Virus record (IMG/VR): IMGVR_UViG_2872164251_000007 | Location: 1-29,317 of that record | Reading direction: 5' to 3' (one strand) | Origin: a virus | Taxonomy: Duplodnaviria > Heunggongvirae > Uroviricota > Caudoviricetes | DNA: 29,317 bases | Shown: piece after piece, positions 11,318 through 12,264 of the stretch | Layout: every line of letters begins with the position of its first letter | Position numbering within the stretch: position 1 is the first letter of the stretch | The notes under the pieces: generated by a model | Seen by the model: only the letters and a program-made list of their open reading frames with translations | What the model was told of the DNA's origin: nothing | The model's database searches: none | Translations under genes and position numbers: made by a program

Positions 11318-11703
11318 GTTCACAGATAAAACACTCTCCAGGAAACCCGGAGCGGTTCAGTTAATGACGCTGATTTCTTGTTGGGACATTTACGTGTACT
11401 CCTTTTGTTTGCACCCTGAAGTCGCACCCCACTGACCTACTCAAGCCCCCACGTAAAGGGAGACCAGCAGGCAACAGGACGCAAACAGAATGACTTGAGG
11501 TAATTGGGGTTAGTGGTCTGCGATGACCATAGAGATGAAGGTTCGACAGCATGTCCGAGCGTGTGTGGTGATAGACTTAAGTCACGAGACCAAAGAACAC
11601 ACAGGCTGACCAGAGGCTGTCTTGCCTTAGGCTGGTGGCTAGCTTGCTAGCGTGGACCACGGTTTCTCGCTTGCCGTCTCTCAGGAGGTCAGAGGCGAGA
11701 TAT

Positions 11704-11726
11704 GGTCCCTATAGTGATAGTTTAGT
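11704..11726 (-). promoter_or_regulatory. T7-group phage RNA polymerase promoter-like sequence P1
   Basis: Minus strand -17..+6 = ACTAAACTATCACTATAGGGACC; contains the CACTATAGGG core of T7/SP6-type promoters; about 320 nt upstream of the Rha-family start. Confidence 0.55.
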
Positions 11727-12264
11727 CAAACAGGAATGAACTTCGGAGAACTTGACGCGAAAGTGTTCAGTACTTCCAGTAAGACCCGAAGCATGGAGAC
11801 CACATCATAGCGACCATAATTTTACTTCGGGTTGGCGGGAGTGGAGGCTGGACTTAAAGTTCTTCTTATTGGAATTGTGATAACACAATCCATAACAAGA
11901 TAAACTCATGGTCTCCTCCAGCCTGCTGGTCAAGACTCAAAGCTCCAACCTCAGACACCACTGATCTAACCTCTTTGAGTTTCCGCCTGTCCACAAATGG
12001 ATGGCAGACCTCAGTAATGGTGTCTTGGTTCTTCAGTTATCCGCGCAGCGATTATCACAGAGCCAACTTAAAGTCGGATGTGGTCTACTGCTCCCCGCCT
12101 GTCAAAAGGGAAGATAGCTTACGTTAAAAGGAATGGTCTCAGGCCAAGGTGATTTAACACTAGGCGTCTGCGGATGGTTTCCAATCGGTCCGCTACCGGA
12201 AGCCTGAGACTTAATGAATGTGTGTATGGGTCGTGACTGCTATTAAGGTGGGGACTTAGGGTCT

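Follow-up and report, generated by a model that had tools for sequence, protein, structure and literature searches.

A conserved structured RNA behind T7-family promoters in a satellite-like island of Enterobacterales

A structured RNA in the ORF-free stretch

The window analysed here is the complete 29,317-nt IMG/VR virus record IMGVR_UViG_2872164251_000007 (Caudoviricetes). It contains a lambdoid prophage whose tRNA cluster holds a small, integrase-bearing island of ~6 kb with all genes on the minus strand. In positions 11390-12264, between the island's tandem phage-type promoters and its Rha-family gene, the original prediction had seen ~0.9 kb without a convincing open reading frame (ORF) and had treated it as a single leader to Rha. 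We find that this stretch is no empty leader: its upstream 543 nt are the gene for a large structured non-coding RNA, which is followed by a further promoter, P1, and a 320-nt leader. We consider it probable that this new RNA is made by the polymerase of an infecting phage and acts as RNA. The features concerned, from upstream to downstream, are as follows.

12293..12315, minus strand: P3, T7-type promoter, TAATACACCTCACTATAG; TAATACACCTCACTATA/GAGGAA; predicted start 12298
12265..12287, minus strand: P2, K1F/Kayfunavirus-type promoter, CCTTAACTATCACTATAGGGG; CCTTAACTATCACTATA/GGGGAG; predicted start 12270
11727..12270, minus strand: structured non-coding RNA module, ~543 nt, 3' end approximate; core 11860-12225 (nhmmer)
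11704..11726, minus strand: P1, second K1F-type promoter, ACTAAACTATCACTATAGGGA; ACTAAACTATCACTATA/GGGACC; predicted start 11709
11390..11709, minus strand: Rha leader, 320 nt; Shine-Dalgarno sequence AAGGAG at 11399-11404

A structured RNA was one of the options offered in the original prediction, and it is borne out by strong covariation on the promoter-sense strand. An alignment of 19 distinct sequences, reaching down to 72-74% identity over the part alignable by blastn, was folded with RNAalifold, which predicted 105 pairs. Standard pairs are formed in 96.7% of the cells, compared with 35-44% when the partners are slid. Both sides have changed in 40 of the 105 pairs, against 14.2 ± 2.0 in shuffled alignments (0 of 500 reached 40) and 6-14 in slid ones. 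The hairpin that presents the invariant loop GAUUGGAAACC is closed by the stems GCGGA/UCCGC, GCAGA/UCUGC, GCAG/CUGC or GCAAG/CUUGC, and helices 9-13, which form a 90-nt domain, occur as two fully compensated haplotypes. As a single sequence the RNA folds at -180 kcal/mol (z = -3.7), with a hairpin GGGGA...UCCCC at its start. The alignment fold is lower for the promoter-sense strand (-248.7) than for the antisense strand (-224.4), and the sense strand has more G-U pairs.

Conservation is unevenly distributed along the module. Long invariant blocks (GAUUGGAAACC, CCUAG, UGAAGAAC, CGGAAACUC and UGACCAGCAG) are separated by segments that diverge yet keep their pairing, and conservation peaks in a central core of ~360 nt (12225-11860) that is rich in invariant unpaired motifs. 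Both ends are variable, the 3' end being the least conserved part; its last 60-140 nt vary from group to group and are deleted or replaced in three of the related loci (here designated by L numbers), L035, L005 and L045.

The module was found in 163-168 of 5426 complete Escherichia coli genomes, on the chromosome only, at 75-98% identity, and also in Shigella, Citrobacter, Enterobacter, Leclercia, Rouxiella and 21 metagenome contigs; the window's copy is 100% identical to those of Shigella flexneri SFBU1023 and E. coli ECMA0423. The segment is thus conserved in homologous islands, well beyond what chance would give; a lack of such conservation had been named in the original prediction as grounds for abandoning the idea of a functional element. 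A search of genome, viral and metagenome collections for more distant homologues returned only Enterobacterales relatives of at least 72% identity, RNA-less islands and the family of L114 were without a diverged copy by nhmmer, and the segment matched none of 50,697 phage records in blastn. Rfam 15 (including ROOL, GOLLD, OLE, raiA, group I/II introns, RNase P, 6S, tmRNA and C4/CI) had no match within 11300-12350, whether scanned with the gathering thresholds or, under permissive filtering, at E <= 10. The RNA is a new family without an Rfam relative.

Some details of the fold were noted in passing. CCUAAG (12255-12261, minus strand) is predicted to pair with UAUGG (~11816-11820, minus strand, ~nt 451), and the two together recall the 11-nt receptor for GAAA tetraloops. 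Two GGAAAC motifs are invariant in the RNA. As an extra nucleotide is present in the receptor-like motif of most sequences, this is only a hint of tertiary structure. A candidate pseudoknot between a loop and a 3' segment (AUUGGAA/UUCCAAU) is absent in Rouxiella and was dropped.

Tests for a protein-coding gene

As originally described, 11390-12264 contains no ORF of at least 60 amino acids (aa) except one of 63 aa on the minus strand (11361-11552), which overlaps the Rha start at 11389 in a different frame and has no Shine-Dalgarno sequence. In relatives this ORF stops after ~8 codons. A shorter minus-strand ORF to which the original prediction had drawn attention does exist and, as judged there, is not a gene; its GGAGGAG does not abut the ATG directly, however, there being a 3-nt spacer, ACC, between them.

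11805..11909, minus strand: ~34-codon ORF, ATG 11909-11907, stop 11805; not a gene

This GGAGGAG (11919-11913, minus strand) is one strand of a helix, its GGAGG pairing with a downstream CCUCC in the single-sequence fold. The ATG is CAG in L005 and is replaced by insertions of 18-19 nt in L035 and L045 (18 being a multiple of three), L006, L033 and L047 each have 1 inserted nt, located in a hairpin loop, and the substitutions observed in the ORF are non-synonymous. When the 34- and 63-codon ORFs were tested as small-protein genes, start, frame and length were not kept in the homologues of either. Across the 19 RNA homologues no reading frame is conserved, the longest stop-free run varies in strand, frame and position, and the variable sites are without clear 3-nt periodicity; a gene overlooked through a frameshift, against which the original prediction had cautioned, was not found in them.

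Phage-type promoters around the RNA

The tandem promoters P3 and P2, already recognised in the original prediction, are real sequence features, and P1 is a third, internal one. P3 agrees with the T7 consensus TAATACGACTCACTATAGGGAGA apart from -11, -10 and the +2 to +6 region; promoters of its type are also present in L003 and L010, and its exact 16-mer had no match in IMG/VR phage contigs. P2 is kept upstream of the RNA in all relatives, and P1 is a 19-nt direct repeat of P2 at a distance of 561 bp. The core shared by P2 and P1, AACTATCACTATAGGGA, was found in ~20 IMG/VR contigs of 39-41 kb, in many of them in multiple copies, and one contig bearing it matches Kayfunavirus and K1-type coliphages, vB_EcoP_F and TM1 among them, at 92-96% identity. 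Because the core recurs in Kayfunavirus-like contigs, P2 and P1 fit the polymerase of a K1F-like phage.

Relatives of the island carry comparable arrays. The position of P1 is occupied by one or two promoters, often T3-like plus K1F-type, and the RNA is flanked on either side by a T3-like promoter, ATACCCTCACTATAGGGA, next to the K1F-type one. In the island of L114 (E. coli CRE1493), the exact T7 consensus stands in tandem with a K11-type promoter, AATTAGGGCACACTATAGGGAGA; downstream come ~450 nt of other non-coding sequence, AT-rich in part, and then another promoter. Since both the relatives and L114 have them, mixed-specificity promoter arrays ahead of a non-coding slot are a design feature of the islands. 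No sigma-70-like promoter was found on the minus strand of the stretch, nor any intrinsic terminator, processing site or tandem repeat within it. The only direct repeats are the promoters themselves, and regulator binding sites, another of the functions originally suggested, therefore find no support.

The RNA as an accessory cassette

The island core, consisting of a 163-aa and a 329-aa gene, was found in 310 of the 5426 E. coli genomes (~6%), with the RNA in about half of them. In the RNA-less islands L036, L112 and L113, the position held elsewhere by a cargo gene and the RNA is taken by 83-bp repeats, two or three in tandem, and by a 122-aa ORF that a phage promoter precedes; in L045, the RNA replaces the repeats and the 5' part of the 122-aa ORF. 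Where the flanking sequence suffices, the RNA almost always lies directly 3' of the cargo gene, which is either RAZR or the 202-aa gene of the window, and this unit of cargo and RNA occurs with two integrase types that are only ~30% identical to each other. In L010, a 15-kb island, a diverged copy of the RNA is located near the far end, behind an HNH gene and after a K1F-type promoter. The patchy presence, the slot swaps and the two integrase types show that the RNA behaves as an accessory cassette that can be exchanged and that brings a phage promoter of its own.

The 83-bp repeats (L036, 6980-7290; L112, 9835-10037) separate the integrase gene from the first phage promoter. An AT-rich CTTTATATATACTTCC and a TTGACAT motif are present in every repeat, and the arrangement could represent either an iteron-type origin or an array of host promoters. 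L010 (E. coli Jnd12, positions 1-16200) is inserted in ynfE. It additionally encodes two proteins of 863 aa and 455 aa, the former with an SLT domain at its N terminus, as well as an HNH endonuclease and a small holin-like ORF. We take the 863-aa protein to be reminiscent of T7 gp16, and L010 may connect these islands with a temperate T7-like phage. The family represented by L114 6022-6995 combines a RAZR homologue with a capsid-like gene of 33% identity and was counted in ~170 E. coli genomes by blast with the RAZR gene.

The island and its cargo

The island runs in the order tRNA-Gly, integrase, 202-aa cargo gene, ORF-free stretch, Rha, 163-aa gene and 329-aa gene. Its genes outside the RNA and Rha regions are:

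12960..14570, minus strand: tyrosine integrase, 536 aa, Pfam Phage_integrase; adjoins tRNA-Gly 14705-14779
12320..12928, minus strand: cargo gene, 202 aa, between integrase and promoters, in the slot that holds RAZR/PD-T7-4 in most relatives
8559-9050, minus strand: 163-aa protein, island core gene downstream of Rha
7486-8475, minus strand: 329-aa protein with HK97 capsid fold, island core gene downstream of Rha

In most relatives the cargo slot holds a DUF4145 gene that PADLOC identifies as PD-T7-4 (E 1e-102; the copy in L001 is at 9953-10612). RAZR, which is the same as PD-T7-4, is a HEPN RNase that is activated by the portal rings of T7, T3 and other phages and cleaves single-stranded RNA (PMC13017515), and PD-T7-4 was noted earlier to overlap an integrase gene in many cases (PMC9519451). 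The 202-aa cargo had no Pfam, PHROG or PADLOC match and no similarity to RAZR. On inspection, its sequence shows a HEPN-type R-x4-H motif, RDAIAH, and it is possibly another HEPN RNase.

AlphaFold2 modelled the 329-aa protein with a predicted local distance difference test score (pLDDT) of 82 when distant homologues were included, and with an unusable 38.6 from close homologues only. A Foldseek search against the PDB gave 188 matches at E <= 1e-3, and 50 out of 50 among the matches listed are HK97-fold capsid or encapsulin shells. The 163-aa protein may be a scaffold; PGAP labels its gene 'peptidase M16 family' in some genomes, a label without Pfam support. No portal, terminase, protease, polymerase or recognisable replication protein was detected in the island with Pfam and PHROG. 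The island thus has an integrase, T7-family promoters before all non-integrase genes and an HK97-fold protein, with no full virion or replication set. Given this gene content (integrase, phage promoters, capsid-like protein and defence gene), it has the appearance of a minimal satellite of T7-like phages, with a defence gene in addition.

The tRNA-Gly at which the island is integrated belongs to a four-tRNA cluster, Gly-Thr-Arg-Met (14705-15015), and no att repeat of at least 12 nt was found between the tRNA-Gly end and 4500-8000. Islands of the same family in other genomes lie at a chromosomal tRNA-Gly near ETT2, or in ynfE with a different integrase. Some assemblies of public read sets contain an entire island on a contig of its own, 6.4-7.2 kb long (L039, L044 and other Logan contigs). 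The ends of these contigs show no overlap, so that they may stem from assembly breaks and not from excised circles. The host prophage itself carries a C4 antisense RNA, isrK and a sok antitoxin RNA (18178-18365; 21325-21499).

Mode of action and rival explanations

If the module is indeed an RNA made by phage polymerase, its bulk synthesis would occur only when a T7-like phage brings the matching enzyme, which here would be that of K1F-type phages and in relatives also that of T3-like ones. Tandem promoters of differing specificity would then amount to a broad infection sensor, and the 5' hairpin GGGGA...UCCCC may stabilise the RNA as the leaders of T7 late mRNAs are stabilised. The folded RNA is proposed to act in trans, binding a phage or island protein or self-assembling during conflict or partnership between island and phage. 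We favour a trans-acting RNA because the core of unpaired motifs is central, the ends are variable or deleted, the downstream genes have P1, and the cassette is exchangeable. A more specific form of this proposal, which we offer only tentatively, is that of a helper-triggered effector that binds or cages a protein, or self-assembles in the manner of ROOL and GOLLD, and so tips the balance between abortive defence and spread of the island. Candidate partners would be the portal, the phage polymerase, the island's own RNase and the capsid-like shell.

Several points weigh against an RNA that is made on infection and acts as such. No partner, target or catalytic motif was found, and a comparison of the RNA with K1F-like contigs totalling 535 kb, and with the remainder of the window, gave no complementarity above shuffled controls. 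P3 is without a known cognate phage, and all three promoters are consensus matches only. As no terminator intervenes, read-through from the cargo gene is possible, and the RNA may be just the 5' part of a long transcript or the 3' untranslated region (UTR) of the cargo mRNA. A good fold is likewise predicted for the antisense strand (z = -3.0), so that the strand assignment rests mainly on the promoters. The diversity of the alignment is modest, most sequences being >85% identical and two main haplotypes dominating; the covariation consists largely of two or three haplotypes counted repeatedly, and the shuffle control is uncorrected for kinship, so that relatives may beat the shuffles without structure. 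Finally, the published RAZR defence works without this RNA (PMC13017515). Separately, an 11-nt match of the RNA to the Rha leader was discarded, as it is not kept in other leader types.

A replication or packaging signal had also been proposed for the stretch, and against both stand the lack of an AT-rich stretch, of a class II pause site and of similarity to helper DNA, together with the poorly conserved 3' end. A transcript-primed replication origin is nevertheless the main rival, if an unlikely one: helper RNA polymerase would initiate at the tandem promoters, and the folded transcript would serve as a primer or R-loop to be extended by a helper or host DNA polymerase. Such an origin would be a protein-free alternative to the module of iterons and 122-aa protein in RNA-less islands. 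It is favoured by the absence of any recognisable replication protein from the island and by the mutual exclusion, in one slot, of the RNA cassette and the 83-bp repeats plus 122-aa ORF. The tandem phage promoters directly upstream recall the T7 primary origin (phi1.1A/1.1B), where two tandem promoters ~28 bp apart head a non-coding stretch, and in L114-type islands T7 and K11 promoters precede a non-coding stretch that is partly AT-rich. In the window, however, the promoters precede 540 nt of conserved, GC-balanced, paired RNA with no AT-rich segment or run (GC 0.47-0.50 across 11500-12500), which is not what a T7-type origin would look like, and we know of no requirement of T7-type origins for a long structured RNA. 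The length of ~540 nt and the structural conservation likewise recall the pre-primer RNA II of ColE1, a structured transcript of ~550 nt on a small mobile replicon without an initiator protein. Yet in the island RNA the 3' end, from which a ColE1-like transcript would prime, is the part least conserved and is deleted or replaced in some relatives, transcription would be by a phage polymerase, and neither an origin nor an equivalent of the antisense RNA I was identified. The invariant unpaired motifs at the centre suit a trans-acting RNA better than an origin, and the location of the L010 copy at the far end of its island also speaks against an origin.

An RNA acting in cis only is less probable still. 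It would be a processed 5' leader (cut, for instance, by RNase III) that protects or insulates the Rha/capsid operon, or a stabilising 3' UTR of the cargo gene. The lack of a terminator between the cargo gene, the RNA and the downstream genes is compatible with either, as is the nearly constant position of the RNA 3' of the cargo gene, but P1, located downstream of the RNA, gives the operon its own start, and the RNA is unneeded as a leader. Features resembling those of T7 late-mRNA leaders and RNase III sites are present, namely a 5' stem-loop of the kind that follows GGGAGA and, in the adjacent leader, a conserved irregular hairpin before a strong Shine-Dalgarno sequence (11410-11483). What they explain is the Rha leader of 320 nt and the 5'-most 21 nt of the RNA, not the ~360-nt core, whose invariant loops and junctions across five genera exceed what a stabilising element needs. 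Moreover, the sequence of the RNA is kept before unrelated downstream genes and, in L010, behind the HNH gene.

That the stretch is a DNA packaging signal for a T7-like terminase, mimicking a concatemer junction or pac site, we regard as very unlikely. Packaging by a helper is made plausible by the capsid-like gene and the phage promoters, and the packaging of plasmids by T7 needs promoter-linked sequences. Against this, the module has no similarity to the 50,697 phage records or, above shuffled controls, to the 535 kb of K1F-like contigs, the class II pause site ATCTGTT does not occur between 839 and 18387, and half of the islands are without the module. Its helices contain many G-U wobbles, some of them alternating with G-C or A-U, which the complementary strand would read as A-C mismatches. 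A decayed or frameshifted protein-coding gene is hardly credible, since the stop-free runs of 51-123 codons in individual sequences agree in neither strand, frame nor position and lack a clear codon periodicity, the indels (the 18-nt insertion excepted) are not multiples of three, and the changes preserve base pairs. An RNA antitoxin of a type III toxin-antitoxin system was rejected, as tandem repeats are lacking, the position of the RNA is 3' of the cargo gene and RAZR works without this RNA (PMC13017515).

Relation to known RNAs

Among known RNAs, ROOL and GOLLD, the large ornate RNAs of Rfam whose structures were determined by cryo-electron microscopy (PMC12286853), offer the closest likeness in general design. 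They too are hundreds of nucleotides long, with an elaborate conserved structure, invariant unpaired motifs and no assigned function, and are found on prophages and mobile elements, often near tRNA genes. The island RNA differs from them in having no sequence or structure match to either (Rfam, E <= 10), in its confinement to Enterobacterales, and in being placed under T7-family promoters in a satellite-like island beside an anti-T7 RNase. The CI RNA of P4 and the C4 antisense RNA of P1/P7 (RF01695) are likewise regulatory RNAs of satellites or prophages and are cut from a leader transcript, but they are only ~70-90 nt long, base-pair with nearby sites and are made by the host polymerase. The C4 match in the window (18178-18262) belongs to the neighbouring prophage, not to the island.

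A literature search on T7-type satellites or islands with phage-polymerase promoters returned nothing relevant, and no description was found of the RNA, of the promoter arrays or of these islands as satellites of virulent T7-like phages. Large structured bacterial RNAs of unassigned function are rare and have repeatedly been a source of new biology. In the present case the promoters would indicate both when the RNA is made, namely on infection by a T7-like phage, and by which enzyme. Its neighbours, RAZR as a characterised anti-T7 RNase and the capsid-like protein, make its function testable with standard coliphages. The RNA also draws attention to a family of islands, ~6 kb in size, whose promoter arrays tie them to several T7-family polymerases. 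Should the tentative effector proposal be true, no large structured RNA before this one would have been known to take part in the conflict between satellite and phage, and a multi-specificity promoter array would be coupled to it as infection sensor.

Rha leader, Rha gene and insertion elements

The fold of the Rha leader as a whole is not unusual (z = -0.87). The last ~75 nt form a long hairpin (~11410-11483, minus strand) just 5' of AAGGAG, which compensatory changes preserve before unrelated first genes in other islands; by comparison, this hairpin seems to resemble T7 RNase III sites. The Rha gene is interrupted, a fact on which the original prediction was silent: an insertion sequence (IS) element lies 30 nt into it.

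11360..11389, minus strand: Rha-family gene, first 10 codons (MSQQEISVIN), from the translation and the intact Rha in L001
10050..11359, plus strand: IS3-family element, 1310 bp, ends TGAAC...GTTCA, target duplication GTT (3 bp)
9348..10049, minus strand: remainder of the Rha-family gene, Pfam Phage_pRha E 4e-18; continues the Rha of L001 from residue 11

The element, which we take to be IS629-like, splits Rha after codon 10 and contains an ALIL frameshift pseudoknot (10385-10501) and transposase ORFs at 10104-10430 and 10427-11317. A second IS3-family element (6023-7227) is located just beyond the 329-aa gene. Past it, in the lysis region of the prophage and outside the island, lies GACTATCACTACAACC (5875-5890, minus strand), described earlier as a degenerate promoter copy; the sequence is present at that position, but it is without the TATAG core and its likeness to a promoter is probably due to chance. 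The copy of the island in the window has probably been disabled by the two IS elements.

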